This document shows positions 3,061 to 54,914 of a DNA stretch of 56,119 nucleotides, one piece after another. Source of the stretch: Deltaproteobacteria bacterium (GTDB taxonomy: Bacteria; Myxococcota_A; Polyangia; Fen-1088); the NCBI GenBank assembly GCA_033763315.1, contig JANRKS010000003.1, forward strand, positions 1-56,119. Direction: 5' to 3'. Made by a program: the position numbers and the translations under genes. Numbering within the stretch: the stretch's first letter is position 1; each line of letters opens with the position of its first letter. A model generated the notes under the pieces. That model was not told the origin of the DNA and made no database searches. It saw only the letters and a program-made list of their open reading frames with translations.

Positions 3061-5255
<2,195 letters not shown>

Positions 5256-37286: not shown

Positions 37287-39170
37287 ATGCTGCACCCCAA
37301 AGGATTCCGAAGCCGCACCACCACCGCCGGCCGCAACATGGCAGGCGCCCGCTCGCTGTGGCGGGCCACGGGCATGAAGGACGCCGACTTCGAAAAGCCC
37401 ATCATCGCGATAGCGAACAGCTTCACGCAATTCGTTCCAGGCCACGTCCACCTGTGGGATGTGGGCCAACGCGTGAAGAAGGTGATCGACGAAGCGGGCG
37501 GTTGGGGCGTGGAATTCAATACCATCGCGGTGGATGACGGCATCGCCATGGGCCACGGCGGCATGTTGTATTCGTTGCCCAGCCGCGATCTCATCGCCGA
37601 CTCGGTGGAATACATGGTGAACGCCCACTGTGCCGACGCCCTGGTGTGCATCTCCAACTGCGACAAGATCACGCCGGGCATGTTGATGGCGGCGATGCGG
37701 TTGAACATCCCCACGATCTTCGTTTCGGGTGGCCCGATGGAGGCCGGCAAAATCGTGGGTACGCACGATCGCAACGGCAAGGCCACGGTGCGCAAGTTGG
37801 ATCTCATCGATTCGATGATTGCTTCTAGCGATTCGAAGGTCAGCGATGAAGAGCTTTTGAATCTTGAGCGTTCGGCGTGCCCCACGTGTGGCTCGTGTTC
37901 GGGCATGTTCACGGCCAACAGCATGAACTGCTTGAACGAGGCTCTGGGCTTGGCCCTGCCCGGCAACGGCACCTTGCTGGCCACGCACGCGCGGCGCTGG
38001 GAATTGTTCGAAGCCGCCAGCCACCGCATCGTTGAGATGGCAAAGCAGCACTATGTGGACGGCGACGACAGCGTTCTGCCGCGCAACATCGCCACCTTCG
38101 ACGCGTTCGAGAACGCGATGGCATTGGACATCGCGATGGGCGGCTCGACCAACACGGTGTTGCACATCTTGGCGATCGCCAAAGAAGCCGGCGTGAACTT
38201 TACGATGGCCGACATGGATCGCATGAGCCGCAAAGTGCCGAACCTGTGCAAGGTGGCACCATCAAGCTCGTACCACGTGGAAGACGTGCACCGCGCGGGT
38301 GGCATCTTCACGATCTTGGGCCAGCTCGACAAAGCGGGCCTGTTGCACCGCCACGTGGGCACTGTGCATTCAAAGACGATGGGCGAAGCCGTGGATCTGA
38401 ATGACGTGCACCGCCCCACGGCCACCGCTGCCGCAAAGGCACGTGCTTTGGCGGCGCCAGGCGGCGTGCCCACGAAGGTGGCCTTTTCGCAGGACAAGTA
38501 TTTCGATAAGCCCGACGTGGATCTCGAGCGCGGCTGCATCCGCGACGCGGAACACGCGTTTAGCAAAGAAGGTGGTTTGGCGGTTTTGTTCGGCAACTTC
38601 GCGCAAGAAGGCTGCATCGTGAAGACAGCCGGCGTTGACGAATCTATCTGGAAATTCGAAGGCCCCGCGCGCGTCTTCAACTCACAAGATTCTGCGTGCG
38701 ACGCCATCATGGCGGATCAGATCAAAGCGGGCGACGTGGTGGTTATCGTTTACGAGGGCCCGCGTGGTGGCCCGGGCATGCAGGAAATGCTTTACCCAAC
38801 CTCGTTCTTAAAAGGCAAAGGCCTTGGCAAAGCGTGCGCGTTGATCACCGATGGGCGCTTTAGCGGTGGTACCAGCGGCTTGAGCATCGGGCACGTTTCA
38901 CCTGAAGCGGCCGAAGGCGGCAACATCGGCCTCATTGAGGAAGGCGATCTCATCAAGATCGATATTCCCGCGCGCAAAATCGACGTGGCGGTGAGCGACA
39001 GCGTTTTGCAGGAGCGTCGCGAAAAGATGATGGCGAAGGGCAAAGACGCCTTCCGCCCCAACCGCGATCGCTATGTGTCACAAGCGCTGCAAGCTTACGC
39101 GCTTATGACCACCAGCGCTTCAAAGGGCGCCGTGCGCGACATCGCGCAGCTGGAACGCAAGCATAAGTAG
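37287..39170 (+). CDS. ilvD: Dihydroxy-acid dehydratase
   Basis: [49 protein letters not shown]. Confidence 0.97.
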
Positions 39171-39212
39171 CGGCCAAACAAAGCGCCCTGCCACATCAAC
39201 GGCAGGGCGCGT

Positions 39213-40241
39213 TCAAGAGGCCACGCTACGGCCATCGAAGCGCCACGTGCCGGCGGCTTCTTGTTCGGCGTGCACCACGCGGCCCATGAACTTGGAAATC
39301 GTTTCAAGCTGCGTGCGCGCGTGCATTGTGGGTGTGGACGTGCGAAAGCAGCTGCCCTGGGCCAACGCCAACAGCAGAACAAGTTGATCGGCCAAGTGCG
39401 GGCCCACGGGCACGTCACTCTCTAGATATTCAGTGGCGGCGGTCGCGACTTCTTCCGCGACCGCTTCGGCGCGCACGCGCTTTTCACCGAAGCCCACCAT
39501 CACCTCAGTGACGTGTTCAGCCTCAACGTAAACCAGCACCGCGTTGCCCGGACCCGCTGAATCGCTGCGCTGTTCAATCACGCAATCCTGGGACGCCAAG
39601 CCCAAGCGGGAGGCCACAACTTCAACCTCGCGCGCGGCGATGGCGCGCGGCAAGTTGGCGATGAGCACGCGGGCGTGCCGCCGCTTGATGGCGCCGCGTT
39701 CAAGCAAAACCAACGGCGACAAGCTCGGCGTGGGTGCGACCTCAACGCGCAGCCGACCGCCGCCCGCCGGATAGAACCCGGGGCGCTCAAGCACAACCTT
39801 CACCTGCGGGCCCATGCGTGCGACCAGCGGCAAATAAACGTCGGCCAGAAAGTCAAACGGGGGCGCGCTGGGGTTGTGGGTGCCACCTTCAAGAATGATC
39901 GTGGAAGGTGCAGGTGCCGTAAGCAAGGCGGGCAAAACGGTTTGCAGCACAAGCGTGGTGCTGCCCGCCGTGCCGACGGAGAACATGAACGCGCCGCCTT
40001 GCAGCTTCGAAGGCGCAAACGCCACGCTGCGCGCCCCGATCGCGGCGCCCTCCACGCGTGCATTACCGATCGTTGCCGCCGCTTCCACGGCCGTAAGATG
40101 CTGCCGCAGCAAACCCGGGCGCGCGCGGCCCGCACGGATGTTGTCGATGCGAAAGGCCTGCCCCGTGATCAACGACAACGCCAACGCCGAGCGTAGGATC
40201 TGCCCCCCACCCTCGCCTTGTGAACCATCAAGAATAACCAT
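39213..40241 (-). CDS. rtcA: RNA 3'-terminal phosphate cyclase
   Basis: DGSQGEGGGQILR, GGTHNP.AP, GFYPAGGG, HLADQL. Confidence 0.97.
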   Translation of the reverse strand: MVILDGSQGEGGGQILRSALALSLITGQAFRIDNIRAGRARPGLLRQHLTAVEAAATIGNARVEGAAIGARSVAFAPSKLQGGAFMFSVGTAGSTTLVLQTVLPALLTAPAPSTIILEGGTHNPSAPPFDFLADVYLPLVARMGPQVKVVLERPGFYPAGGGRLRVEVAPTPSLSPLVLLERGAIKRRHARVLIANLPRAIAAREVEVVASRLGLASQDCVIEQRSDSAGPGNAVLVYVEAEHVTEVMVGFGEKRVRAEAVAEEVATAATEYLESDVPVGPHLADQLVLLLALAQGSCFRTSTPTMHARTQLETISKFMGRVVHAEQEAAGTWRFDGRSVAS

Positions 40242-40245
40242 TTCA

Positions 40246-41493
40246 TCAACCCTTCACACACACCACTTGGCGAAGCGTGTGTACAATTTCCACCAAGCTT
40301 TTCTGTGCATTCATCACAACGTCGATGGGTTTATAGGCCATCGGCGTCTCATCGATCACGTCGGCGTCTTTGCGGCATTCGATCCCTTGCGTCGCTTCTT
40401 GGTGATCCTTCACCGTGAACCGCCGCCGCGCTTCCGTGCGTGACATCTTACGACCGGCGCCGTGGCTGCAGCTATGAAAGCTGTCGTCGTGACCAAGCCC
40501 TCGCACAATAAACGAGCGCGCCCCCATACTGCCGGGGATGATCCCCATGTCTCCTTGCCGCGCACGCACGGCCCCCTTGCGTGTCACCAACACGTTTTCA
40601 CCGAAATGATGTTCGCGCGCCACATAGTTGTGGTGGCAGTTCACAGCCTCGAGGCGCGCCTCGAACGCAGGCAAGACCTTGCTCTTGCGCAAAGCCCCCA
40701 CCACCTGCGCCATCATCAGCTCGCGGTTAAGCCGCGCGTATTCCTGCGCCCAGTGCACGCCCTGCACATAATCATCAAAGTGCTCGCTCCCCTCAACCAG
40801 GTAAGCCAAATCGGTGTCAGGCAAATTGATAAAGTGGCGCCGCATGTCGCCTTTCGCCAGCTCGATAAAAAAGCTGCCAATGCGGTTCCCCACGCCACGC
40901 GAGCCGCTGTGCAACATCACCCACACATGATTGTCTTGATCCAAACAAAGCTCGATGAAATGGTTACCTGTGCCAAGGGTCCCCAAGTGCTGCACATGTG
41001 AACCGCGATCCAGCTTGGGGTATTTGGCAATCAGGGCGTCGTACCCAGGGCGAAGCTGGGCCCACGCCTCGGCCGCGGCCGAAGGGATGTTTTTCCAGGC
41101 GCCGCGATCGTTGCGTCCGCCATTGTCTGTTCGCCCGTGCGGCACGGCCGCCTCGATCGCCGTGCGCAGCCCGCTCAAATCATCAGGCAACGCAGCGGCG
41201 TTAAGGCTGGTGCGCACAGCCATCATGCCGCAGCCGATGTCCACACCCACGGCGGCCGGCACGATCGCGCCTTTGGTGGCCACCACGCTGCCCACGGTGG
41301 CGCCGATGCCCACGTGCACGTCAGGCATCACGGCGATGTGCTTGTGGATAAATGGCAACGCCGCCATGCGCTCAAGCTGGGCGCGTGCCTCGGGCTCAAA
41401 CGGAACGCCGACTGTCCACGACTTGATGTGCGCGCCGCCTGGCACGTGAAAGGTTTCGTGAGTGGTTGCCACGGGACTGAAAGTCGTTGTCAT
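40246..41493 (-). CDS. rtcB: RNA ligase RtcB
   Basis: MPDVH, VGVDIGCG, LGTLGTGNHF, HSGSRG, CHHNY, PGSMG, SHGAGR. Confidence 0.97.
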   Translation of the reverse strand: MTTTFSPVATTHETFHVPGGAHIKSWTVGVPFEPEARAQLERMAALPFIHKHIAVMPDVHVGIGATVGSVVATKGAIVPAAVGVDIGCGMMAVRTSLNAAALPDDLSGLRTAIEAAVPHGRTDNGGRNDRGAWKNIPSAAAEAWAQLRPGYDALIAKYPKLDRGSHVQHLGTLGTGNHFIELCLDQDNHVWVMLHSGSRGVGNRIGSFFIELAKGDMRRHFINLPDTDLAYLVEGSEHFDDYVQGVHWAQEYARLNRELMMAQVVGALRKSKVLPAFEARLEAVNCHHNYVAREHHFGENVLVTRKGAVRARQGDMGIIPGSMGARSFIVRGLGHDDSFHSCSHGAGRKMSRTEARRRFTVKDHQEATQGIECRKDADVIDETPMAYKPIDVVMNAQKSLVEIVHTLRQVVCVKG

Positions 41494-41506
41494 GTGTGGG
41501 GCAGAC

Positions 41507-41522
41507 TGCAGCCGTCATGCCA
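41507..41522 (-). promoter_or_regulatory. Sigma54 (-24/-12) promoter of rtcBA
   Basis: Minus strand TGGCATGACGGCTGCA = GG-N10-GC, directly upstream of rtcB and divergent from rtcR. Confidence 0.78.
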
Positions 41523-41561
41523 GGCCGGCCGGACGCGGTGGGGCGGGCCCCGCAGCGCGCA

Positions 41562-41592
41562 GTTTATATTCTCATATACGTCGTTTATACTC
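41562..41592. promoter_or_regulatory. Candidate RtcR upstream activating sequence
   Basis: AT-rich island with direct repeat GTTTATA(T/C)TC, two copies 21 bp apart, between rtcB and rtcR. Confidence 0.45.
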
Positions 41593-41601
41593 CTGAATCG
41601 T

Positions 41602-43224
41602 ATGCCGCACCGTCCCCTCACCGTCATTGGGTTTCTTGGCTCTACACTTGACCAAGGCAAGCGCGGCCCCGCGCGTTGGGAGAAGTGGCGTCCCACGGTG
41701 TCGCTGTGCCAACAGGACGATCTTCTGGTCGATACGTTGGTGCTTTTGCACAGCAAGGAATACCAGGGTTTGGCCGATTTCGTGGCGGCCGACGTGCGCC
41801 AGGTTTCACCTGAAACGAAGGTGCAGCTTGAGGTCGTGGCACTCAACGATCCTTGGGACTTGGAGGAGACCTACGGCGCCCTTCGTGACTTCGCCAAACG
41901 CATGGCGTTTGATCCCACGCGCGAGGACTACCTTTGCCATATCACCACCGGCACGCACATCGCCCAGATCTGCATGTTCTTGCTGGTGGAATCACGCCAT
42001 TTTCCCGCACGATTGATCCAAACCTCACCGGGTTCGGGGCGCGATGGCTCTGCAGCCGCGGGCAAGTACAGCATCATCGATCTGGACCTATCGAAATACG
42101 ACGGGATAGCCCAGCGCTTCCGCAAAGAGCGACACGAAGGCCTATCGTTTTTGAAGGCGGGCATCGACACACGGAACGCCAGCTACAACCGCATGATCGA
42201 ACGCATCGAACAGGTGGCGATCGCCTCGCGGGATCCGGTGCTATTGGGCGGCCCCACGGGCTCGGGCAAATCACACCTGGCTCGCCGCATTTACGAACTG
42301 AAGAAAGCGCGCCGCCAAGTGGCGGGTCTGCTTGTGGAAGTCAACTGCGCCACGTTGAGAGGCGACGCGGCGATGTCCACGTTGTTCGGCCACGTACGTG
42401 GCGCTTACACGGGCGCGGCCGAAGCACGCGCGGGCATGTTGCGCAAAGCTGACAAAGGTGTGCTTTTTCTCGATGAAATCGGTGAATTGGGCTTGGATGA
42501 ACAAGCGATGCTCCTGCGCGCCATCGAAGACAAAACCTTCTTCCCTGCGGGCTCGGACAAAGAGGTGCAAAGCGATTTTCAACTCATCGCCGGCACGAAC
42601 CGCGACTTGGTTGGCCGCGTGGCGGAGGGAAAGTTCCGCGAAGATCTCCTGGCGCGCATCAACCTGTGGACCTTCGTGTTGCCAGGCTTGCGCGATCGGC
42701 GCGAGGACATTGAGCCAAACTTCATGTTCGAGTTGGAGCGCGTGGGCGACGCGCTTCATACGCGCCTTTCGATCAGCAAAGAAGCGCTGCAGAAGTACCT
42801 GCAGTTCGCGCGTTCCCCCGAGGCCCTGTGGCCGGGCAACTTTCGCGATTTCGGCGCTTCGTTGCGCCGCATGGCCACCTTGTGCGAAGGCGGCCGGATC
42901 AGCGTGGCCGACGTGACCGAAGAGCTGGCACAACTGCGCGTGCAATGGCGCACGCAAGCCTTGCCAAGCCGCAAAGAAGATCTGCTCGCACAGCTGCTGG
43001 GCGCCGCGGGTGTTGAAGCCTTAGATTTGTTCGATCGCGTGCAACTCGAAGAGGTGGTGCGGGTGTGTCGCGCATCCCACTCGCTTTCGGAGGCGGGCCG
43101 GCTGCTGTTTGCCGCCTCACGCGCGGCGCGTTCTTCCACGAACGACGCGGATCGCTTGCGCAAATACTTGTCCCGTTTCGAGCTGTCCTTCGACAAGATC
43201 CAGGCCGCATTCGCCACTGGTTAA
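41602..43224 (+). CDS. rtcR: Sigma54-dependent RNA repair activator RtcR
   Basis: RWEKWRPTVSLCQQ, DPWDLEE.Y, HITTGTH (RtcR CARF-like domain); Walker A GPTGSGKS, GAYTGA, FLDEIGEL; C-terminal NDADRLRKYL. Confidence 0.96.
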   Translation: MPHRPLTVIGFLGSTLDQGKRGPARWEKWRPTVSLCQQDDLLVDTLVLLHSKEYQGLADFVAADVRQVSPETKVQLEVVALNDPWDLEETYGALRDFAKRMAFDPTREDYLCHITTGTHIAQICMFLLVESRHFPARLIQTSPGSGRDGSAAAGKYSIIDLDLSKYDGIAQRFRKERHEGLSFLKAGIDTRNASYNRMIERIEQVAIASRDPVLLGGPTGSGKSHLARRIYELKKARRQVAGLLVEVNCATLRGDAAMSTLFGHVRGAYTGAAEARAGMLRKADKGVLFLDEIGELGLDEQAMLLRAIEDKTFFPAGSDKEVQSDFQLIAGTNRDLVGRVAEGKFREDLLARINLWTFVLPGLRDRREDIEPNFMFELERVGDALHTRLSISKEALQKYLQFARSPEALWPGNFRDFGASLRRMATLCEGGRISVADVTEELAQLRVQWRTQALPSRKEDLLAQLLGAAGVEALDLFDRVQLEEVVRVCRASHSLSEAGRLLFAASRAARSSTNDADRLRKYLSRFELSFDKIQAAFATG

Positions 43225-43240
43225 GGGCGCCTCGCTCGCG

Positions 43241-43257
43241 TTGGCCCGCTTGTTGCT
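43241..43257 (+). promoter_or_regulatory. Sigma54 promoter upstream of the tRNA-like gene
   Basis: TTGGCCCGCTTGTTGCT, a close match to YTGGCACG-N4-TTGCW, starting 17 bp after the rtcR stop. Confidence 0.72.
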
Positions 43258-43325
43258 GATACCTCGAACGTCCGCTGAACAGCTCAGCGAACGTCACATG
43301 AGGAGCTTCAACAAGACTGACAACT

Positions 43326-43397
43326 GCTCTCGTAAGCATCTGGCGAGGCTGCCCGGCTGTCTACCGGGTGAGACGGGTTCGATTCCCGTCGAGAGCG
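43326..43397 (+). tRNA. Atypical tRNA-Asp(GUC)-like gene
   Basis: Acceptor GCTCTCG/CGAGAGC plus G73; D arm AGC/GCT with GG in the loop; anticodon arm CCCGG-CTGTCTA-CCGGG; T arm ACGGG-TTCGATT-CCCGT; no encoded CCA. Confidence 0.85.
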
Positions 43398-43437
43398 CGC
43401 GCGAATTCAAATCCGCTTTCAAGCGGACGTAGGTAGG

Positions 43438-43471
43438 CACGCGCCTGGGCATCGGTGGGCCCAGGCGCGTG
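43438..43471 (+). terminator. 13-bp GC-rich hairpin after the tRNA-like gene
   Basis: CACGCGCCTGGGC-N8-GCCCAGGCGCGTG perfect inverted repeat; lacks a U-tract. Confidence 0.5.
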
Positions 43472-43531
43472 GGCGCTCGGACGCTCGCGTGTTTGACTCG
43501 CCGGGCGGGCACGCGCAGTGTTGAGCACCGG

Positions 43532-44272
43532 ATGAGACTTTGGTTGCCTTTCACGATCATGCTGTTGGCGTGTGGTGGCCCCACGTCGATGGGGGGCTTT
43601 GCCGAACGCGAGGCCACGGCGACGCTGGTGAGCCAAGAGCCAACGGATGTGTGCGCACAGCACGAGGGGAACCTTGTGGTTGAAGTGCGGCGCGTTCAGA
43701 TCAATGAATACCCACACCACCATGATGACGGCCGCAAACAGCAGCCCTTGCTGGTTCGCTCGTTTGAGCATTCAAGCGTCAAGCCTCGGTCGGGCGACGT
43801 TGAAGCCTGGGTCAGCCCCAATAAATATGCATCGGGTGCCACGGTTGACGTGTTTGATGGCATTGCCGTGGTGAACCAACCTTTGCGCAACCTGCGCGGA
43901 TGGCAATTGGTGATCCGGTTGGCCGAAAACGATCGCACGGGTATCCCGCGCTGGGCGAAGGTGGCCACGAAGAGCTCGGGCGCTTCCACGGGCGTGGCCT
44001 TGGCGGGCGTGCCAGCGCCACCATCATCGCTCATCAAAGATGCGATCGAACAGCTTCGCAAGATCGACAACGACGATCTCATCTTCGTGTGGCGCGTGAA
44101 TGTGGCCGACGTGGAGGCGGCGCTGAAAGAACACACAGGCGGTTGGCCGGCGCACATCTACAAGTTGGCGACAACGCGACGAAGTAAGGGGGGGCCGGCG
44201 GCGACGCTCGAGTTGATGGCGTACGTGCAGCCTGAACTGGGGTGTGGGCGTGGTGCTGTAAAGCGCGATTAA
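43532..44272 (+). CDS. Hypothetical lipoprotein
   Basis: MRLWLPFTIMLLAC lipobox; fills the gap between the tRNA and WYL genes; no recognisable family. Confidence 0.65.
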   Translation: MRLWLPFTIMLLACGGPTSMGGFAEREATATLVSQEPTDVCAQHEGNLVVEVRRVQINEYPHHHDDGRKQQPLLVRSFEHSSVKPRSGDVEAWVSPNKYASGATVDVFDGIAVVNQPLRNLRGWQLVIRLAENDRTGIPRWAKVATKSSGASTGVALAGVPAPPSSLIKDAIEQLRKIDNDDLIFVWRVNVADVEAALKEHTGGWPAHIYKLATTRRSKGGPAATLELMAYVQPELGCGRGAVKRD

Positions 44273-44404
44273 CCTCTGCTTGCCGTGTGGCCCCTGAGCT
44301 CACCTTGTCCCACCATATTTGAGTCAGCAAAAGGTTTTGCTTGTACCCGTGGCGCCACGTGAAGAACATGCCCCTGCCAGGTCATCAGGGACCAAGGAGG
44401 GGCA

Positions 44405-45418
44405 GTGGCGAGAAACGATACGATTGTTCGGACGCTTACGGTGTTGCGGGCGTTGACGGAGTCGAAACGAGGCGTTGCACTCAAGGCCCTGGCCGACAAA
44501 CACGGGTTTGAGAAGCGCAACCTATATCGTGACATTCGAGCTTTAGAGGCTGCAGGGTTTCCGATTGAAAATGCCGACGGCCGCTACTGGCTAAGCGCAA
44601 GCTGGCGCATTCCCGGACCAGCCGGCATCGACGGAGATGAGCTACTAGCGCTGTTCGCGGCGCTGACATTGTCGCAGGGTTTACGCGGAACGAAACTCGG
44701 TAAGGCGCTGCAGCGCCTGTGGGGTAAGTTGGCGCTAAAGAATCAACAAGGCACCCTGCTCCCAGCCACCAATCCTTGGCTTAGTGTGCGTGCGCCTTAT
44801 GCGATCGACTACCGGCCGCTTGAACGCTTGATCAGCACGATCGAAGCAGCAGTCATCGAGAGGAAGGCGCTGCGATGTGTTTACAAGGCGCTGTCCACGG
44901 GCGAGGCAATTGACCGCATCATCGAGCCCACGGAGCTTCACTGGGATCCTGGGCTGGAATGCTTGTACGTCCTTGCCTGGTGCCGGTTGCGCGGCGACGT
45001 ACGCGTGTTTGCAGTGCATCGGTTCTTGGAGGTGGAACGCACCGATGAAGCGTTTGTGCCCCACCCTGAGGCAAACGCGAAGCGCTCGCTCGACAAAGCC
45101 TTTCGTGTATGGCGGGACAAGAATGTGTGCGAAGTGCAGGTGAAGTTCGCGAAACACCTTGCCGCCGAGATCGCGGAACGGCGTTGGAGCCCTGAACAAA
45201 AGCTGATAACCGCGGGCGACGGCAGCGTGCTCTTGAGTTTCCCCGTGGCGGGCTTAGCCGAAGTAGAGCGATGGGTGTTGGGATACGGCTCAGGAGCCCA
45301 AGTGGTGGCGCCGGAAGAATTGGTGGTGCGGGTGCGCGCTCACGTTGCGGGCATGGCGGTGGCGTACGGGGGTGGCGTCGTGGAGCGGAGGGGGACGCGG
45401 CACGAGGTGGCGAAATGA
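44405..45418 (+). CDS. HTH-WYL-WCX (YafY-like) transcriptional regulator
   Basis: HTH RNLYRDIRALEAAGFPI; WYL core LYVLAWCRLRGDVRVFAVHR; C-terminal RWVLGYGSGAQVVAPEEL; AGGAGG RBS before the GTG start. Confidence 0.93.
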   Translation: MARNDTIVRTLTVLRALTESKRGVALKALADKHGFEKRNLYRDIRALEAAGFPIENADGRYWLSASWRIPGPAGIDGDELLALFAALTLSQGLRGTKLGKALQRLWGKLALKNQQGTLLPATNPWLSVRAPYAIDYRPLERLISTIEAAVIERKALRCVYKALSTGEAIDRIIEPTELHWDPGLECLYVLAWCRLRGDVRVFAVHRFLEVERTDEAFVPHPEANAKRSLDKAFRVWRDKNVCEVQVKFAKHLAAEIAERRWSPEQKLITAGDGSVLLSFPVAGLAEVERWVLGYGSGAQVVAPEELVVRVRAHVAGMAVAYGGGVVERRGTRHEVAK

Positions 45419-45669
45419 GTTTGACAGAGGGTGAAAGCCAGCTTGGACATCTTGCTAATGAGTTCAGGTCCGGCGACGGAGGGGCGCATTACTCAACACT
45501 TCCATTGGACCTACGAATTCTGACCTTAGATGCGTCTGCGCGAATGATCGCGCCGGCATTGCAATCCTCACGTTCTCTTCGCATCGCATCGTGTCACGGA
45601 TATTTCGTGGACGAAAGAGTTTGACCCCAGGTGACAACGGACGCGGCCATGGTGGCGAGGAGAGAAGAG

Positions 45670-45747
45670 ATGAACTTTAGTTTTCGCTGGCGGGATTCGC
45701 ACGCAGCTAACTGGGACATCCGTCCGCAGGCAAGGAGTCGCTTATGA
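45670..45747 (+). CDS. Putative 25-aa leader peptide coupled to cas3
   Basis: GAGGAG RBS; MNFSFRWRDSHAANWDIRPQARSRL; stop overlaps the cas3 ATG (ATGA). Confidence 0.4.
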   Translation: MNFSFRWRDSHAANWDIRPQARSRL

Positions 45748-48290
45748 ACTTTGACGATGATTTCGCTCTACTCACCGGCAACGCGCCTTTTCCATGGCAG
45801 CGGGCGCTGTATGAACGCTTCGTCGCTCGCGACTTCCCCAGCGCCTGTGATTTGCCGACCGGGCTTGGGAAAACCAGCGTCATTGCGATCTGGCTGATCG
45901 CCCTTGCCAAAAATCCTCAACTCCCGAGGCGCCTCGTTTACGTCGTAAATCGACGCACAGTTGTTGATCAATCTACAAACGAGGCTGAGCGGCTTCGCGA
46001 ACAGCTTCCGAAGGCGCCACATCTATTGAGCGCACTCACAGGCCTAGCAGCCGTTCCTTCGACACACCCTTTGACGATTAGCACGCTGCGAGGCCAGTTC
46101 GCCGACAACGGCGAATGGCGCAGAGATCCTGCCAAGCCAGCGATTATCGTTGGCACAGTGGACATGATCGGCAGTCGGCTGCTCTTTAGCGGCTATGGAT
46201 GCGGATTCAGAAGCAAGCCCCTGCATGCTGGATTTCTGGGCCAGGACACATTGCTTGTGCACGACGAAGCTCACCTTGAACCCGCATTTCAATCGCTGCT
46301 CACTGCCATCTCCGCCGAACAACGGCGCTGCCATGAACCGCGTGCAATGCATGTCGTTGCGCTTTCAGCGACGAGCCGCATTCGGGCAGATTTCACGCTT
46401 GGAGATGAGGACACGAAAAACCCGGCAGTCCAAAAGCGACTTCATGCAAAGAAGGGTTTGAGACTTCATCAAATCGATGATCGAAAAGATCTTCCCGAGA
46501 AAATCGCTGCAACGGCATCCAATCTCGAAGGCAAGGTTATTGTTTTTCTATCGTCAGTAGAACACGCTGAGAAGTGCGCACAAGCATTACGAAAGAACAA
46601 AGCGAAGGACGTTGCTACACTTACGGGAACGATGCGCGGCGCCGAACGGGACCAATTGGTGCGCGACCCCGTTTTCGTCCGCTTTCTTCCGCGGACAAGT
46701 GACGGAGTGGAACCGCGTCCCGGTACCGTCTTCCTCGTTGCGACATCAGCCGGTGAAGTAGGCATCGATCTGTCCGCCGATCACCTGGTCACCGACCTTC
46801 CGCCGTTCGATGCACTCGCGCAGCGCCTGGGTCGCGTAAACCGCTACGGCGATGGGGATGCCGAGGTGCACGTCTATTGCGAGACCTTGAAGCCTCCAAG
46901 GGAAAAATCAAACAGCGAGGATGGCGCCGATGAAGACTACGCGGTCAATCGCAAGGACGAATACGACCAAGCGCGTTTCTTTGCGCGCGAACTTTTGGCC
47001 CAATTGCCCAATCGCAAGGACGACACCCGCGACGCTTCTCCGATGGCACTTCGCCTTTTGCCAAGCGATGCACGGGAAAAGGCGTCAACGCCTCAGCCTG
47101 ACATTTTGCACGTAGACGACCTATTGTTTGATCGGTGGTCATTCACCACCGTGACGGGTCCATTGCCGGGACGGCCGCCCGTCGCCGACTGGCTACATGG
47201 AAAGGCCGAGTGGGAACCACCTCGCACAGCGGTCGCTTGGAGAAAAGAGGTCGAGTGGCTGACCAAAGAACATCTTGGCCGCGAAACCCTTGATGACTTC
47301 CTCGCTGACTATCCGTTGCGAAGTCGCGAAACCCTAAGTGACCTCACAAGCCGCGTATCGAAACACCTGGAGCGCCTGGCCACGCAAGACCACGTCGGGG
47401 AACACAGCGTATGGCTGATTTCAAACAGGGACTCCGGTCGGATCCTCAAGCTCTCTGAGCTCATCACGAAATCGAAAGAGAGCCCCATCCTTCTTGAAGA
47501 CGTGACGATCGTGCTTGCTCCGCGTACAGGAGGGTTGAATGCGGGCTTATTGGATGGCGCTGCGGCGTTCACTCCTGACATCCACTACGACTTGGGACCG
47601 AAGGACGGAGAACGCATTGTTCACGAATCAGAAGCGCTCGTGGATCCGCCAAAAGGCATGCGGCTTGTGCGGACCCTGAAGCGCACGTCGGAACCAGAAG
47701 ACGAGGTGGTGTGGTGGCACCTTTATGCAGACTCACGCAAACCAGACGACGACGGATCAAGGAACAGTCGCAAAGAGCTGTTGCTTGATGTCCATCTCCG
47801 CTGGACCGAGAAGTGGGCCAAACGGCTCGCCGAGAAATTAGCTCTGTCGGAATCTGAGCAAAAAGCCCTAGCCAAGGCCGGACGAACGCACGACCTAGGA
47901 AAACAGCGACGCGTGTGGCAGCGATCAATCAAGCGGTTCGTCGAACCACCTCTTGCGAAGGGTCCAATGCAACCTTCGGAGTTGAACAACTATCGGCATG
48001 AGCTCGGATCTCTACACGACGGCGACTTCTCTGACTTGAACCAGGCGGAACGAGATCTCGCATTACATGCTGTCGCTTCTCATCACGGGCGCGCTCGCCC
48101 GCACTTCCCTGTTGAAGAAAGCTACGACCCAGAGCTGAAGGACGATGTTGTGGCTGCGCTAGTGCGTGAAGTTCCGCTTCGTTTTGAAAGGCTTCAGTGC
48201 AAGTACGGTCGATGGGGGCTTGCATGGCTTGAATCGATTCTACGCGCTGCTGACGTGCTCGGGTCTGAGGAACAAGAGGTGGCAGAGTGA
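45744..48290 (+). CDS. cas3: Type I-G (I-U) Cas3 helicase with C-terminal HD nuclease
   Basis: PTGLGKT, VNRRTVVDQ, GTVDMIGSRLLFSGYG, DEAH, QRLGRVNR; C-terminal HDLGK, RHE, HHG, RAAD. Confidence 0.95.
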   Translation: MNFDDDFALLTGNAPFPWQRALYERFVARDFPSACDLPTGLGKTSVIAIWLIALAKNPQLPRRLVYVVNRRTVVDQSTNEAERLREQLPKAPHLLSALTGLAAVPSTHPLTISTLRGQFADNGEWRRDPAKPAIIVGTVDMIGSRLLFSGYGCGFRSKPLHAGFLGQDTLLVHDEAHLEPAFQSLLTAISAEQRRCHEPRAMHVVALSATSRIRADFTLGDEDTKNPAVQKRLHAKKGLRLHQIDDRKDLPEKIAATASNLEGKVIVFLSSVEHAEKCAQALRKNKAKDVATLTGTMRGAERDQLVRDPVFVRFLPRTSDGVEPRPGTVFLVATSAGEVGIDLSADHLVTDLPPFDALAQRLGRVNRYGDGDAEVHVYCETLKPPREKSNSEDGADEDYAVNRKDEYDQARFFARELLAQLPNRKDDTRDASPMALRLLPSDAREKASTPQPDILHVDDLLFDRWSFTTVTGPLPGRPPVADWLHGKAEWEPPRTAVAWRKEVEWLTKEHLGRETLDDFLADYPLRSRETLSDLTSRVSKHLERLATQDHVGEHSVWLISNRDSGRILKLSELITKSKESPILLEDVTIVLAPRTGGLNAGLLDGAAAFTPDIHYDLGPKDGERIVHESEALVDPPKGMRLVRTLKRTSEPEDEVVWWHLYADSRKPDDDGSRNSRKELLLDVHLRWTEKWAKRLAEKLALSESEQKALAKAGRTHDLGKQRRVWQRSIKRFVEPPLAKGPMQPSELNNYRHELGSLHDGDFSDLNQAERDLALHAVASHHGRARPHFPVEESYDPELKDDVVAALVREVPLRFERLQCKYGRWGLAWLESILRAADVLGSEEQEVAE

Positions 48291-49036
48291 TTAACATGGA
48301 TGTCGATCCAAGAAACCCCGGTCACTTCTTTGGGTGCTGCGGTGTATTCGAACTCGCGCAGCGCCTTTGGCCCCATGCGACGGCACACTTCAATGGCGTA
48401 CGCTTCTCAATATCCGAAGGCGACTTGGAAGAACTCGTTTTGAAAACAGCACAAACCACGATTGAGGTACTGGAACCAGCAAACGAGACCTCTTCGGCAC
48501 TGAGGTTGACGCAACCGTTCGACCTACGTCTTGATTGGTGGAAAGCAGAACGTGGTTTAAAGACTTGGGCAGGTAGAATGTCGGTCAATCGTATCGCGAC
48601 GAGCCTTCAAAGGGACCTGCCGAACACGTTAAAAAACGGATTTTTCAATGATGGTCATGTCGTTTTCGGAAGTGATGGAAAAAAGGTAGAGCCGTACTAC
48701 TTCGATGGTCGCCGTGGTGCAACCGCACTGCCATTGGATGTTGGCTTTTCGTCCGATGCATTGTCTTTTGAAACGGTTGCCTTCAGCGCCACCGAGTTCT
48801 TCACGCTGGTAGGACTTCAGCGTTTTCGTCCCCGCCCCAGTGAAAAGAAGGCTCGTGTCTACAGCTACCGAGCCTGGCGCGAGCGTTTACCAGTGAGCCT
48901 GGCCGCGTTGGCATCAGCCGGTGTACTTCCCGACGAAGGGCCTCGTTTCCAGTTCGAGAGCACATTTCGTACAGACCAACGCAAGCATAAAGCCTTTTCC
49001 CCCGCAAACCCACTTCAAGGAGACCTCGATGAGTGA
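48287..49036 (+). CDS. cas8: Short type I-G large subunit (Cas8u/GSU0052-like)
   Basis: N-terminal DPRNPGHFFGCCGVFELA and late VGLQRFRP; lies between cas3 and cas7. Confidence 0.72.
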   Translation: MINMDVDPRNPGHFFGCCGVFELAQRLWPHATAHFNGVRFSISEGDLEELVLKTAQTTIEVLEPANETSSALRLTQPFDLRLDWWKAERGLKTWAGRMSVNRIATSLQRDLPNTLKNGFFNDGHVVFGSDGKKVEPYYFDGRRGATALPLDVGFSSDALSFETVAFSATEFFTLVGLQRFRPRPSEKKARVYSYRAWRERLPVSLAALASAGVLPDEGPRFQFESTFRTDQRKHKAFSPANPLQGDLDE

Positions 49037-50111
49037 AGCGATTTTTGACAAGTTACTCGGAGATTCTGCCGACGCACCCGCTGCGCTGGTATTGCGTGAA
49101 TATCTAACTCCTGTGGAAGGTAAAGACGGCGCGTTCTTTCCACCGACCTTTGCAGCAGCAGAAAACTCCAAAGAGTTTCCTGGCGGATACAACATCAACG
49201 ACTTGGGAAACGGAGAAAATGTGTGTTTGGTGGACTCGGTTGGTTCTCAAGCGAATCGCATTGAACCGCTATTCACAACGGAGAAATACGCAGCCCTCGT
49301 ACCGCAGATCCTTGTCGAGGCTGGAGAGAAAAAGATCAGCATTTTGCAGGCCGGCCATCGCGCCGGTGACGCCATCGTTCGGTGCACCGAACTAAAAGAT
49401 GGTTTGCAAGCGGCTTTCCAGTCTCTAAAAAAAGGCAATGCTCTGCCCCTGGCAAAATTGGCTCCAACCTCACTGGTGTTCGGAGTATGGGATTCGCGCG
49501 ACACCCAAGCAAAAGCGCCCCGTTTGTTGGCTGCCACCATTCGCGCGTTCAATGTCGCACCACTAACTCGTTCGGCGCAGTACAACCCCGCGACGGAATA
49601 CGTTGAAGAAGGTCTGCTTGATGACACCGAAGACAAGGCCATGCTCAAAGTCTATTCCGAACGCGGCTTTCGACACGTACCCGCTTCAGGCACCCACGGG
49701 GGCGTCATTGCAAGGGGCGACATTCGTCGCGAAGTAACTTTGCAGTTGGCAGCTCTTCGCCTCCTGCGCGCACCAAGTGAAGACGAGACGAAAAAACTTC
49801 GCGCTTACTTGTTAGGGCTTTCTTTGGTCGCCTTTACACAACCGGCCGTGGGCTTCTTAAGGCAAGGCTGCAACCTAGTGTTGGACGCAGACAAAAAGGC
49901 GGAAGCCAAAGTTGTTTATCCTGACGGGCGGAGGGAGGCATGGATCCTTACGCATATTGATGCGCTTGCGTTTGCGGTGAAGTCTGCCGCAAGTTTTGGC
50001 GTTGGCGAAAGCAAGCAAGTCAAATTCGATACAAAGCTAGCCAAGGACGATACGACCGCTCAAAGCAAGGAAGGTAAGAAGAGCGCACAGAAAAAGGCGA
50101 AGCCTTCATGA
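49029..50111 (+). CDS. cas7: Type I-G Cas7 (Csb1)
   Basis: FFPPTFA, LVDSVGSQANRIE, HRAGDA, PTSLVFGVWDSR. Confidence 0.93.
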   Translation: MSEAIFDKLLGDSADAPAALVLREYLTPVEGKDGAFFPPTFAAAENSKEFPGGYNINDLGNGENVCLVDSVGSQANRIEPLFTTEKYAALVPQILVEAGEKKISILQAGHRAGDAIVRCTELKDGLQAAFQSLKKGNALPLAKLAPTSLVFGVWDSRDTQAKAPRLLAATIRAFNVAPLTRSAQYNPATEYVEEGLLDDTEDKAMLKVYSERGFRHVPASGTHGGVIARGDIRREVTLQLAALRLLRAPSEDETKKLRAYLLGLSLVAFTQPAVGFLRQGCNLVLDADKKAEAKVVYPDGRREAWILTHIDALAFAVKSAASFGVGESKQVKFDTKLAKDDTTAQSKEGKKSAQKKAKPS

Positions 50112-51634
50112 GTCGCTACCTTGTGCTGTCCTTTCGTTTCCTCTCTCCGTATTTTCACGGAAGAGGCGACAATGGATCTCCCGAGTGGCCGCCCTCGCCT
50201 TTGCGAGCGTTCCAAGCTGTGGTCGCAGCAGCCGCGCGCGCTAACACGTTAATCGCAACGCGAGACGCGTTGAAGTGGCTGGAGCAACGGGCAGCGCCGC
50301 TAATTATCGCACCCGAGGCCAGCGAGAGCACTGTCGGCTACATCCTTTCAGTGCCGCACAATGCAATGGATCTCGTGGGCAAACAGTGGAGTAGAGGGGA
50401 CGACGGCACTCCCGAAAAACACCGGGCCATGAAAAACGTGCGTCCACACCAGCTGCCGGAAGATGCAGTTGTGCACTATGCTTGGCAATTGGATGATGAG
50501 GGGTGGGCCGCACCCGCGCTTATCTCTGCAGCGCGTGCGGTGGTGGCGCTGGGATGGGGAGTCGATCTCGTCGTAGGTAACGGCTTAGTCGTTGAAACTG
50601 GTGAGCTTGCGAATCTTTCAGCAAACCTCAAAATCTGGCAGCCTCGTCTTGATGGAAGGCGAGAGCTTCGCACGCCAGTAAAAGGCACGCTTGAAGACCT
50701 TGATGGTCGGCATGCAGCATTCTTGGATCGGGTTAGGCTTGACGAACCCACGATTCGGCCCCCACCCGCGATATCTCTCTTCTCTGCCGTAAGGTACGCG
50801 CGAACCGACCAGCCGCGAATTCTTGAGTTTGCCGGTTTCACGTTAATGCGCGTCGATTCAGATAATTTTCGCGCATTCGAAACCGCACGACGCGGAATGG
50901 CGGTCGCGGGGATGCTTCGCCATGCCGTGCGCACTGCGGCCGAGCGTTCAGGTTGGGACAGTGAACGCGTTCGAGCTTCAATCCTCGGTCATGGGAGTGG
51001 GGACGACGCTCGCTTGATGCTTGTACCAGTTCCCAGCATCGAGTCCAGAAAGCCTGGCGGCGAGTATGTAGGATCCGTGCGTCGGGTGATCGTTTTCTCG
51101 AACGACGCCCAAAGCAACGACACGGCGTGGGCGGCGCGTGCTTTGGGCGGTGCCGACCTGATCAACAACACGACGGGCGAAGTAGAAGCCGTGCTTGCTG
51201 CAACTTCGCGCGAGGACCGCGTATTGCAGCGCTACGTCTCCGAATCGTCCAAGTGGGCATCGGTGACCCCTGTGGTGCTTCCCGGTCATGATGACCCAGG
51301 TGGAGTTCGGGACAAGCTCCGTAAGGCGAAATCCGCTGAGGAACAAACGTCATTGCTCAATCGCCTCACAAAGCGACGCGAAGGGTTGGTGCGAAAGGCA
51401 TTGCGGCAGGCGGGCTTGAGCGATGAGTTGGTGTTTTCAGCTGACATTGAACTCCGAGAAACCGGCTTCATCGCCGGCGTTGAAAAAGCATCTCGGTTCA
51501 CTGTGCCAAGTCATCTTGTCGCAGCGCCGCGGCTCCACGTAAAACTCTCCTGGCCATCGAAGGTAGCCGGGCCGATTTGCGTGGGTAGCGGTCGCTTCTC
51601 CGGACTAGGCTTATTTGCAACGGTAAGTTCGTGA
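50108..51634 (+). CDS. csb2: Type I-G Csb2 (Cas5-Cas6 fusion)
   Basis: EWPPSPLRAFQAVVAA, LGWGVD, WASVTPVVLP, Gly loop GPICVGSGRFSGLGLF. Confidence 0.93.
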   Translation: MSRYLVLSFRFLSPYFHGRGDNGSPEWPPSPLRAFQAVVAAAARANTLIATRDALKWLEQRAAPLIIAPEASESTVGYILSVPHNAMDLVGKQWSRGDDGTPEKHRAMKNVRPHQLPEDAVVHYAWQLDDEGWAAPALISAARAVVALGWGVDLVVGNGLVVETGELANLSANLKIWQPRLDGRRELRTPVKGTLEDLDGRHAAFLDRVRLDEPTIRPPPAISLFSAVRYARTDQPRILEFAGFTLMRVDSDNFRAFETARRGMAVAGMLRHAVRTAAERSGWDSERVRASILGHGSGDDARLMLVPVPSIESRKPGGEYVGSVRRVIVFSNDAQSNDTAWAARALGGADLINNTTGEVEAVLAATSREDRVLQRYVSESSKWASVTPVVLPGHDDPGGVRDKLRKAKSAEEQTSLLNRLTKRREGLVRKALRQAGLSDELVFSADIELRETGFIAGVEKASRFTVPSHLVAAPRLHVKLSWPSKVAGPICVGSGRFSGLGLFATVSS

Positions 51635-51715
51635 GTTTTTGATTTAAACGCTTTGCCGATCGGCGCGCCGGTCGTTGTTTGAGATTTAATCGTGCGATCC
51701 GCCGCAAAGGAAGAC

Positions 51716-52528
51716 ATGGCCACTGCAAGCGACTCTGCCCTTAAAGCCGCACCAAATCTTGAAGTGTCCGATCTTGTGCCCGCGCGCATGCTTAACGAGT
51801 TTGCGGATTGCCCACGCCTATCTTGGTTGGAACTGGTGCAAGGAGATTTTGTGGACGTTCCCGACACGGCGACTGGCCGTGGTGTGCATCGAAAGGTGAA
51901 TCAGGAAGGTGGCGCGCCGCCGGCCGCAGACAATGCAATCGATCTGAGCAACCCCAGTTCGTACGTCGCCATCGCTGTCTTCGACGATCGCATTGAGTTC
52001 CACAGCATTGGTGCGTTCCCGACTGGCATTCATGCGGAACTGCTTACACAGGATCACCGATCGATACCACGCAACCCACTTATCGCTGGTGCCTTCCATC
52101 GAACGGGCGCGATCGAAGTTTGGGGCCGCGGCACCAATCAGGTCATTGAGGCGTGCAGATCATTTGGTGTTCCCGCTCCGACCTTCAGCGAACTTTCGGG
52201 CGCGGTAACGGTGGCGCTTAAGGCCGAAGTTGTTGCTGGCGCGACCAAGTCAGCGTCAACCGGGGCACTAAGTCGGCACCAAGTGCGCACGAAGTCAGCA
52301 CTAAGTCGGGAGCAAGTTCAAGTTCTTGAAATTGCAAGTGTTCCACGATCCTTGACTGAGCTCGCAGCACCGTCAGGGCGTACGGACCGCACTAAGTTCA
52401 GGGACCAAGTATTGCGCCCTCTGCTCGACGCGCAACTCCTGACCATGACAATTCCAGACAAGCCTCGCAGCTCAAAGCAACAGTACGTCAGGACGGACGC
52501 AGGCCGGGCGGCCATTGAGAAGAGATGA
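51716..52528 (+). CDS. Chimeric ORF or pseudogene: Cas4 N-terminal fragment fused to an ATP-binding (HATPase_c_4-like) and winged-helix C-terminus
   Basis: First ~75 aa resemble the start of the downstream Cas4/1 (LVPARMLNEFA.CPRLSWLE.VQGDF); then DDRIEF.S.G..P, PRNPLIA, IEVWGRGT, MTIPDKPRSSKQQY. Confidence 0.7.
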   Translation: MATASDSALKAAPNLEVSDLVPARMLNEFADCPRLSWLELVQGDFVDVPDTATGRGVHRKVNQEGGAPPAADNAIDLSNPSSYVAIAVFDDRIEFHSIGAFPTGIHAELLTQDHRSIPRNPLIAGAFHRTGAIEVWGRGTNQVIEACRSFGVPAPTFSELSGAVTVALKAEVVAGATKSASTGALSRHQVRTKSALSREQVQVLEIASVPRSLTELAAPSGRTDRTKFRDQVLRPLLDAQLLTMTIPDKPRSSKQQYVRTDAGRAAIEKR

Positions 52529-52595
52529 TTCTTGAGCAACCGGCGGCTCTCGTCCACCTGTGAACTTTGGCGCCCGATCAGCCGTAAAGGAAATC

Positions 52596-54350: not shown

Positions 54351-54372
54351 GCGAAAGAAAAGGAGAACGCGA

Positions 54373-54663
54373 ATGCGAAACGTGTTCCTCGTTTGCTACG
54401 ACGTGTGCGACGATAAGCGCCTCCGTAAGGTTTATAAGACGATGCGCGGATACGGTGACCATCTGCAACTGTCGGTGTTCCGATGCGAGCTTTCTGCCCG
54501 CGAGAGGGTCGAAATGTTGGCGGCATTGGGTCCAATCATCGACCACGATCAGGACCAAGTGCTCATCGTTGACATCGGCCCAGCTGATGGCCGGGCCGGG
54601 CAAGTCTTCGAAGCCATCGGCAGGCCCTACACATCACCCGAGCGTCTGGCGATCGTGGTTTGA
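54373..54663 (+). CDS. cas2: Cas2
   Basis: LVCYDVCDDKRLRKV, HLQLSVFRC; AGGAG RBS. Confidence 0.96.
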   Translation: MRNVFLVCYDVCDDKRLRKVYKTMRGYGDHLQLSVFRCELSARERVEMLAALGPIIDHDQDQVLIVDIGPADGRAGQVFEAIGRPYTSPERLAIVV

Positions 54664-54914
54664 CCCGGCCATGCTCTTTGACACCTGCATAGCAAAGATG
54701 ACGATCCAGTTCGCGAGCGGTTCGGTGATGCTGAATGGCCGGGAGCCGCTCGCGAACCTTGATTTTCGTTGGCAAGTACGCGGAATTGTTAGGCTGACTT
54801 CGATTGTCCGCGCGAGCGACACCTGCCGAAGATTTGTTAGTCGAAACCCGTTTTGCACAACGCTCGAAAACGCTGTCTCAAACCCTGGATTTCATGCTTC
54901 ATTTCTCCCGAGCC
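54664..54914 (+). promoter_or_regulatory. CRISPR leader
   Basis: Non-coding stretch between cas2 and the first repeat; contains inverted repeat GTTCGCGAGCGGTTC/GAGCCGCTCGCGAAC (54709-54757). Confidence 0.8.

Follow-up and report, generated by a model that had tools for sequence, protein, structure and literature searches.

A solitary tRNA-Asp gene of the phage and array type behind a second sigma54-type promoter in a Myxococcota rtcR cassette

Why should a bacterial chromosome carry a single tRNA gene directly behind the gene for the RNA-damage regulator RtcR, with what looks like a sigma54 promoter of its own? We addressed this question in the window, by which we mean the whole 56-kb contig of a 7.6-Mb Myxococcota metagenome-assembled genome (MAG; 90.85% complete), where a sigma54-type motif and then a tRNA-Asp gene with an unusual anticodon loop come after rtcR on its own strand. 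The nearest named RtcR loci are those of Myxococcales MAGs. As judged from comparative sequence analysis, the tRNA is intact, foreign and of a mobile type, and its setting suggests that cells induce a substitute tRNA when they induce their RNA-repair enzymes. Three features frame the question:

41602..43224, plus strand: rtcR, divergent from rtcBA, with a CARF-type RtcR domain, a sigma54-interaction AAA+ domain and a C-terminal DNA-binding part (Pfam RtcR 1e-79, Sigma54_activat 3.7e-46, AAA_lid_14)
43242..43257, plus strand: second sigma54-type promoter, TGGCCCGCTTGTTGCT, 17 nt past the rtcR stop
43326..43397, plus strand: tRNA-Asp(GUC) of the phage/array type (ARAGORN, which gives 43326-43398; Rfam; family covariation)

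A second sigma54-type promoter behind rtcR

The rtcR gene, with its ATG at 41602 and its stop at 43222-43224, codes for a protein with the Walker A motif GPTGSGKS and with GAYTGA as its GAFTGA-type loop, and rpoN is present in the genome (Sigma54_DBD, 219 bits, contig C6). A first-pass annotation had read a near-consensus -24/-12 promoter just after rtcR, and this reading is borne out: TGGCCCGCTTGTTGCT has GG at -24 and GC at -12 at the fixed spacing, and agrees with 12 of the 14 defined positions of the sigma54 consensus. The tRNA starts about 70 nt after the motif. Neither a sigma70-like site nor a terminator-like site was found between rtcR and the tRNA, and the window lacks the leader of about 300 nt that precedes tRNA arrays in this phylum (see below), which leaves the sigma54 motif as the sole promoter-like signal ahead of the tRNA.

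The motif recurs 4-24 nt past the rtcR stop in ten rtcR loci, namely those of the window (G000), G026, G020, G098, G034 (where rtcR is frameshifted), L310, L312, L316 and L361/L362, and across these loci GG and TTGC are invariant while the spacer varies. Where RtcR is at least 71% identical to that of the window, the motif is found in 5 of 6 genomes, L024 being the exception, and 5 of 12 metagenome contigs have it. Among more distant RtcR loci it is found in one of 39 from metagenomes, at +196, where it is probably a chance match. Among 80 species-representative rtcR loci a single one, that of G020, has the motif, and in the more distant genomes it was found neither in G019 and G047 nor in the 78 remaining species representatives. 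Upstream of eight arrays that do not adjoin rtcR we found no sigma54 motif within 400 nt, and one single match at -864. On these comparisons, the second promoter belongs to one rtcR sub-lineage and not to the arrays. The first-pass annotation had proposed searching rtc loci for similar tRNAs behind sigma54 promoters; what emerges is that this rtcR cassette includes the motif as a conserved component, and that the cargo behind it varies.

In G026 the motif is followed by a conserved 300-nt array leader and at least seven tRNAs, and in G020 by a T-arm-like element, a Band_7/SPFH gene, two open reading frames (ORFs), the same leader and 28 tRNAs; an Rfam search between rtcR and the arrays of these two genomes returned only tRNAs and sub-threshold noise. 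At L311 rtcR is directly followed by the leader and 13 tRNAs, including a tRNA-Asp with the loop CUGUCUA, and there is no sigma54 motif. At L312 (5743-5897) the motif is followed, after about 67 nt, by a solitary tRNA that scores 59.7 bits in Rfam and has the amber-reading anticodon CUA. At L316 (1448-1615) it precedes an RNA of tRNA-like shape that has the acceptor, D and T arms and, in place of the anticodon arm, an insert of about 75 nt. G098 and L310 share a structured leader, GGGAGG...CCCAGGC / GCCTGGG...CCCTCCC, after the second promoter (L123:6431-6570; L310:2385-2520), followed in G098 by genes for an 869-aa Prok-RING_4 protein and a HEAT-repeat protein and in L310 by a similar ORF start; the cargo of L361 is likewise an ORF. 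Within this series the window is the minimal tRNA form of the second-promoter cassette. We note that the L312 tRNA(CUA) has the loop CUCUAGA, with an ORF starting 7 nt after it and a short tRNA-Leu(CAG) as its closest array relative (79% identity), and that the L316 RNA gives a partial match to the tmRNA model (23.5 bits).

On the other side of rtcR lie the repair genes and a first promoter:

39213..40241, minus strand: rtcA, RNA 3'-phosphate cyclase (Pfam RTC 1.3e-76, with RTC_insert)
40246..41493, minus strand: rtcB, RNA ligase (Pfam RtcB 1.4e-126)
41507..41522 (41522-41507), minus strand: first sigma54-type promoter, on the rtcBA side, TGGCATGACGGCTGCA (read from the sequence)
41561..41590, minus strand: AT-rich stretch with two TATAAAC repeats, a low-confidence candidate for the RtcR binding region (by position)

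The rtcB-side motif has a counterpart in G026, G020 and G098 and in 39 of the 78 rtcR loci scanned. In the Myxococcaceae loci among L025-L102, the rtcB sigma54 promoter is preceded, at a distance of about 60-90 nt, by GGATAGG-n3-TTTATCC-CATGG-GATAGG repeats, a candidate RtcR operator; the TATAAAC repeats of the window occupy the place of these GGATAGG/TTTATCC repeats, upstream of the rtcB promoter. Related rtc loci have in common only rtcA, rtcB, rtcR and the second sigma54 motif, and their flanks differ. With RtcR detected in 6 of 61 relatives and the flanks unshared, the rtc cassette is therefore best described as an accessory module. Separately, four non-myxobacterial loci (L073:5588, L080:5590, L099:5590 and L082:5157) have odd tRNA-like genes, called by ARAGORN on the strand opposite rtcR and about 400 nt upstream of it, on the rtcB side (a Val-AAC, two with undetermined anticodons and a Phe with the loop CUGAACG); these may be Y-RNA-type mimics.

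As the second motif is co-inherited with rtcR, we infer that RtcR is its likely activator. The alternative would be that the motif serves another enhancer-binding protein, or is unused, and that read-through from rtcR yields the tRNA, a path along which no terminator was found. In keeping with this alternative, loose matches are common in this G+C-rich genome: TGGC-N7-TTGC occurs 11 times in the window against 5.2 expected, and the wider TGG[CT]-N7-[TC]TGC at 3086 genome sites, or about 0.057 per 280-nt strand window. Furthermore, no 8-10-mers were common to the upstream regions of both promoters in three genomes. The 220 nt ahead of the second promoter showed no RtcR-site-like motif, so that activation would need a site 1.7 kb away, where the candidate site at the rtcB promoter lies, or another protein. 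Enhancer-binding proteins are, however, able to act over kilobase distances, and the strict form of the motif, TGGCNCG-N4-TTGCW, has just 18 sites in the 7.6 Mb (both strands), the second promoter among them. The conservation of GG and TTGC in the same place in ten rtcR loci, around a variable spacer, and the lack of the motif in nearly all other rtcR loci and in arrays without rtcR also argue for a link to RtcR, and we consider it very unlikely that the tRNA escapes RtcR control.

Structure and kin of the tRNA-Asp

The full cloverleaf with anticodon GUC and U37-A38 that had been described from the sequence is recovered by ARAGORN and by the Rfam tRNA model (RF00005; 45.7 bits against a gathering threshold of 29, E 1.7e-07, model positions 1-71 of 71). 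In the anticodon loop, CUGUCUA (43357-43363), the anticodon lies at 43359-43361, U37 at 43362 and A38 at 43363; the housekeeping tRNA-Asp on contig C35 has the loop CUGUCAC (A37-C38) instead. The other 46 tRNAs that ARAGORN calls in this genome all have a purine at position 37 together with U33. Compared with a canonical elongator, the window tRNA has the U33 and the 7-nt loop, and has U in the place of the purine at 37. A thermodynamic fold of the tRNA alone gave no cloverleaf, and we used covariation as the structural basis instead.

Homologues turned up in a DNA search of the order (11 of 88 other genomes) and of a sample of the phylum (10 of 400 other genomes), and 11 copies from the order served as the covariation set. 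Standard pairs fill 93.8% of the pair cells in their alignment, against 40-49% with slid partners, and compensatory, both-side changes occur at 10 of the 21 pairs; none of 500 shuffles attained the observed values. The anticodon GUC is invariant in the family, and the discriminator G, at 43397 in the window, nearly so. The first-pass annotation had remarked on a weak D stem and on the lack of CCA, and both remarks are accurate as descriptions: the D stem has three Watson-Crick pairs and an A13/G22 mismatch, and CCA is not encoded. Neither speaks for decay, since the mismatch is present in all 11 members and is thus a family trait, and since just 13 of the 46 other host tRNA genes encode the 3'-terminal CCA, so that its absence here is uninformative. 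A decayed tRNA with no conserved homologues, one of the outcomes that the same annotation had named as fatal to its proposal, is contradicted by the conserved homologues and by the compensatory changes. By these measures the window tRNA is intact and selected, not decayed.

The best match of this tRNA within the host genome is a tRNA-Glu, at 74%, and the host tRNA-Asp falls outside the top 10. The tRNA is thus foreign, most likely acquired horizontally, and a duplicate of the host tRNA-Asp is ruled out. All of the homologues examined sit among other tRNAs, in groups of 3-30. ARAGORN finds no other tRNA on the 56-kb contig, so that the many same-strand genes with short spacing that define a long tRNA array are missing, and the window tRNA is array-derived without being itself an array.

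We surveyed 206 array tRNAs at 13 loci (L007-L009, L018, L019 and L114-L121). Many are non-canonical: 58 lack U33 (57 have C33 and one G33), against none in the host set of 46, and array tRNA-Leu genes are mostly of class-I length, 74-80 nt against 83-85 nt in the host set. Some array Ala and Trp tRNA genes are 69-70 nt long. A pyrimidine at 37 is found in 8 of the 206, six of which are tRNA-Asp. Within the order the Asp loops are CUGUCUA in four genomes (window included), CCGUCUA in three, UUGUCUC in one and CUGUCGA in three, and the U37 and G37 forms of tRNA-Asp both recur in other families of the phylum, at times in one array.

The same loop occurs in phages. The tRNA-Asp of Myxococcus phage Mx1 (OR576727.2), whose host belongs to the same phylum, agrees with that of the window at 57 of 73 positions, and its loop is likewise CUGUCUA; unlike the window tRNA, it is phage-borne and lies in a cluster of about 20 tRNAs (L136, 43.2-49.8 kb). 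In the stretch of this cluster that we read, the only pyrimidine-37 among 19 tRNAs is that of the tRNA-Asp, and the cluster also holds a tmRNA called by ARAGORN, an HNH endonuclease and a fragment annotated as 'RNA ligase A'. The loop CUGUCUA is found as well in tRNA-Asp of Ruegeria phage RpAliso and Erythrobacter phage vB_EliS-L02. In IMG/VR, a pattern of this loop plus the T loop matched 53 stretches, of which 19 are tRNA-Asp by ARAGORN, in clusters of 3-29 tRNAs, and 34 are not tRNA calls; the pattern with the canonical loop matched at least 117 stretches, and of 80 of these, 63 are tRNA-Asp. Given its presence in phages, in 19 viral contigs and in arrays, U37-A38 is therefore a recurrent minority type of mobile tRNA-Asp and not a local accident. 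The 73-nt tRNA query found no match in a plasmid collection, and the G020 array gave only single-tRNA and HNH-gene matches, with no syntenic array, against plasmids and phages.

The leader of about 300 nt is conserved before the first tRNA of at least nine Myxococcota arrays (L018:5684-6030(-), L019:5739-6085(-), L007, L008, L114-L117 and L311:1720-2060). Its parts are a promoter-like block, a G-rich stretch and then GGAGGT..ATG, and the G-rich stretch could pair with an invariant intrinsic terminator at the 5' arm of the latter; by its sequence it looks like an attenuator, and it has no Rfam match. In G021 (L007:4102-9234, minus strand), the genes that come after an array of 13 tRNAs, on its strand, code for a 518-aa protein that fits no known family and for a STAND/NB-ARC NTPase of 1124 aa.

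The whole arrays after rtcR in G026, G020 and L311 raise the possibility that the second promoter, while real, once served a larger array of which this genome has kept a single gene, and that the tRNA now behind it is neutral baggage. The sporadic occurrence of the cassette (RtcR in 6 of 61 relatives), its unshared flanks and the lack of a match to the tRNA or to this RtcR in the two same-genus genomes searched would fit such a history. The copy is nevertheless intact, with all four stems paired as in its relatives, no tRNA relics adjoin it, and no 300-nt array leader precedes it. Its distance from the promoter, about 70 nt, is also much like the 67 nt or so of the solitary L312 tRNA, and what has been retained is precisely the tRNA with the odd loop of this family. 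We therefore hold leftover cargo to be an improbable account.

The predicted transcript and its surroundings

Besides the tRNA itself, three hairpins are predicted close to it:

43268..43294, plus strand: leader hairpin, ACGTCCGCTGA / TCAGCGAACGT, within a 5' leader whose predicted length is about 59 nt (inverted repeat and predicted fold)
43414..43429, plus strand: trailer hairpin, whose 3' arm is also complementary to 43268-43283 of the leader (inverted repeat and predicted fold)
43438..43471, plus strand: 13-bp G+C hairpin, terminator-like, without a U tract (inverted repeat, 100% complementary, and fold; uncalled by the terminator scan)

A leader stretch, ACGT..GAACAGC, is partly conserved and is common to the window, G026 and G020. 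Downstream of the hairpins the window holds the following:

43532-44272: ORF after the tRNA, with a lipoprotein-type signal start (MRLWLPFTIMLLAC...), no Pfam match, and unshared with related loci
44405-45418, plus strand: WYL/WCX regulator
45744-48290, plus strand: Cas3-like helicase with a C-terminal HD domain
within 44405-56119, plus strand: GSU0053 and GSU0054 family proteins
52560-54350, plus strand: Cas4-Cas1 fusion
54915-56119, plus strand: CRISPR array with at least 17 repeats, running off the contig end

The stretch 44405-56119 looks like a type I-G/I-U-like CRISPR-Cas locus. That the lipoprotein-like ORF, the WYL regulator and the CRISPR-Cas genes belong to the rtc unit is ruled out, as they are unshared with related rtc loci and follow a strong hairpin after the tRNA.

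Possible roles of the tRNA

In the model that we tentatively prefer, and to which we would give slightly less than an even chance, the window tRNA is a damage-induced spare tRNA-Asp, fired by RtcR together with RtcB and RtcA, whose loop evades a nuclease that reads A37-C38. Damaged tRNA would activate RtcR, which would fire the rtcBA promoter and the second promoter together, the transcript from the latter starting near 43267. RNase P and 3' trimming would free the tRNA, and CCA would be added post-transcription. The tRNA would then decode aspartate codons as a spare, its altered loop going unrecognised by whichever anticodon-loop nuclease cuts the housekeeping tRNA-Asp (A37-C38), and decoding of GAY codons would continue while RtcB repairs the rest. 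In this model we infer transcription from the second promoter, aminoacylation and insensitivity to the nuclease. A look for sequencing runs over 41400-44300 returned none. From work in E. coli, the identity set of AspRS comprises G34-U35-C36 and G73, with G10, C38 and G2-C71 as minor elements. The window tRNA has the major elements, GUC and G73, both kept in the family, and because these are retained its charging with aspartate is plausible.

A number of observations weigh against this model. The minor AspRS elements are changed to A10, A38 and C2-G71, whereas the host tRNA-Asp has all three, and a purine at 37 is nearly universal in decoding tRNAs, so that U37 may weaken decoding. G37 in three array tRNA-Asp copies of the order, and in several of the phylum, makes U37 frequent and not obligatory. 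The cargo of relatives includes the tRNA(CUA) of L312, the anticodon-arm-less RNA of L316 and the protein genes of G098, L310 and L361, and with a cargo so varied the common denominator is not an aspartate decoder. Two same-genus genomes were searched without a match to the tRNA and without one to RtcR (the RtcR Pfam model being run on one of them), and the locus is therefore accessory. To the missing RtcR-site-like motif at the second promoter we add that myxobacteria carry many enhancer-binding proteins, which makes another activator possible. We are also not aware of a nuclease whose recognition of tRNA-Asp depends on position 37 or 38. That U37 is an answer to a colicin E5-type enzyme is ruled out, as the determinant reported for that type, YGUN at positions 33-36, leaves position 37 outside (PMC1635277).

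Known systems bear on both the preferred model and its competitors. The nearest of them is the trn operon (L-array) of Anabaena sp. PCC 7120, which is induced along with rtcB when translation is stressed and whose tRNAs are charged (PMC8421152, PMC10272220). As in the window, these tRNAs are supernumerary and horizontally spread; those of Anabaena are silent in normal growth and induced with RtcB (PMC8421152, PMC10272220). An HNH endonuclease and a slipin/Band-7 gene are described in the neighbourhood or regulon of the Anabaena system, and the G020 locus likewise has an HNH-like stretch and the Band_7 gene. The Anabaena array, however, is described as having a sigma70 promoter and a repressor, TrcR, and as lying on a megaplasmid away from rtcB, whereas the window has an activator-type sigma54 promoter joined to rtcR and a cargo of one tRNA. 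An RtcR homologue is reported as not identifiable in Anabaena, where TrcR plays the equivalent part (PMC10272220).

The rsr-yrlBA-rtcBA locus of Salmonella resembles the window in that a tRNA-shaped small RNA is made with RtcB and RtcA; Salmonella YrlA is under RtcR and sigma54, and a nuclease-decoy role has been suggested for it (PMC7790460). In contrast to the window tRNA, YrlA is described there as a Ro-bound Y RNA without a true anticodon arm, inside the rtcBA transcript. The window has a complete cloverleaf with its own promoter, on the rtcR side. A Y RNA (YrlA, RF02553) is ruled out for it, since no match was found at E up to 1 in 39000-46000 and no TROVE gene in the 90.85%-complete genome.

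These parallels lend some weight to a role as decoy, sensor or feedback RNA. The tRNA would again be induced with RtcBA, and it would soak up an anticodon nuclease or yield a 2',3'-cyclic-phosphate fragment sensed by RtcR, its amino-acid identity being irrelevant. Such a role accords with the tRNA-shaped cargo of relatives, in which the anticodon is inconsistent (CUA in L312, 59.7 bits; no anticodon arm in L316; a T-arm-like element in G020), with the control of tRNA-like YrlA, a suggested competitive nuclease inhibitor, by Salmonella RtcR (PMC7790460), and with the sponge role proposed beside a spare-tRNA role for the Anabaena array tRNAs (PMC8421152). It sits poorly with a family that keeps GUC and the discriminator G over wide divergence and that is accompanied, in arrays and phage clusters, by a nearly complete complement of the other isoacceptors, the hallmark of decoders. 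The lack of a YrlA match and of a Ro/TROVE gene also counts against it, and we regard this role as distinctly unlikely.

The preferred model, that of a nuclease-evading spare, has its counterpart in phages. It has been proposed that phage tRNAs escape anticodon nucleases through changes in the anticodon loop (PMC10264068), and phage tRNAs that escape tRNA-cutting defences have been proposed or shown (PMC11555353, PMC11464382). The window tRNA shares with phage tRNAs the loop change next to the anticodon, the loop being identical in three phages and 19 viral contigs, and differs from them as a chromosomal gene linked to a host RNA-damage regulator. The first-pass annotation had suggested that the altered loop serves to evade or titrate an anticodon nuclease. 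The recurrence of U37-A38 in phage and array tRNA-Asp fits the published idea of evasion (PMC10264068) and thereby supports the suggestion in part. The annotation overlooked the foreign origin of the tRNA, and also the arrays and other cargo that the same promoter has in relatives. The 'superoperons' of CoCoNuT systems led by RtcR homologues are also comparable, in that an RtcR-type activator is predicted to drive same-strand downstream genes; their cargo is described as restriction and HEPN nuclease genes, not tRNAs, and promoters are unmapped in both cases (PMC11090510). In the literature that we covered there was no report of an RtcR- or sigma54-driven tRNA gene, nor of the U37 type of tRNA-Asp.

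A wider reading, which we hold to be doubtful, would have a phage counter-defence tRNA captured under a host RNA-damage sensor, to give a two-arm response of repair by RtcBA and replacement by a cut-proof isodecoder. It would also imply a widespread nuclease that reads positions 37-38 of tRNA-Asp, and a cargo slot in which tRNA, array, mimic and proteins can be swapped. If this is true, the CUGUCUA tRNA-Asp of Mx1, of marine alphaproteobacterial phages, of viral contigs and of Myxococcota arrays marks a tRNA-Asp nuclease, and this rtcR lineage has, behind the second promoter, a place at which cargo can be exchanged.

It has long been asked why spare tRNAs are carried by phages and by some bacteria, and to our knowledge only one bacterial tRNA array, that of Anabaena, has so far been tied to a regulator. 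At the window locus the problem comes down to a single promoter, a single regulator and a tRNA defined by one change in its loop, and the locus would extend the RtcR regulon beyond repair enzymes and Y RNAs. Furthermore, the locus points to a tRNA-Asp-specific nuclease worth seeking, and the same loop in a cultivable phage of a model myxobacterium makes the idea of a nuclease-proof replacement tRNA directly testable.

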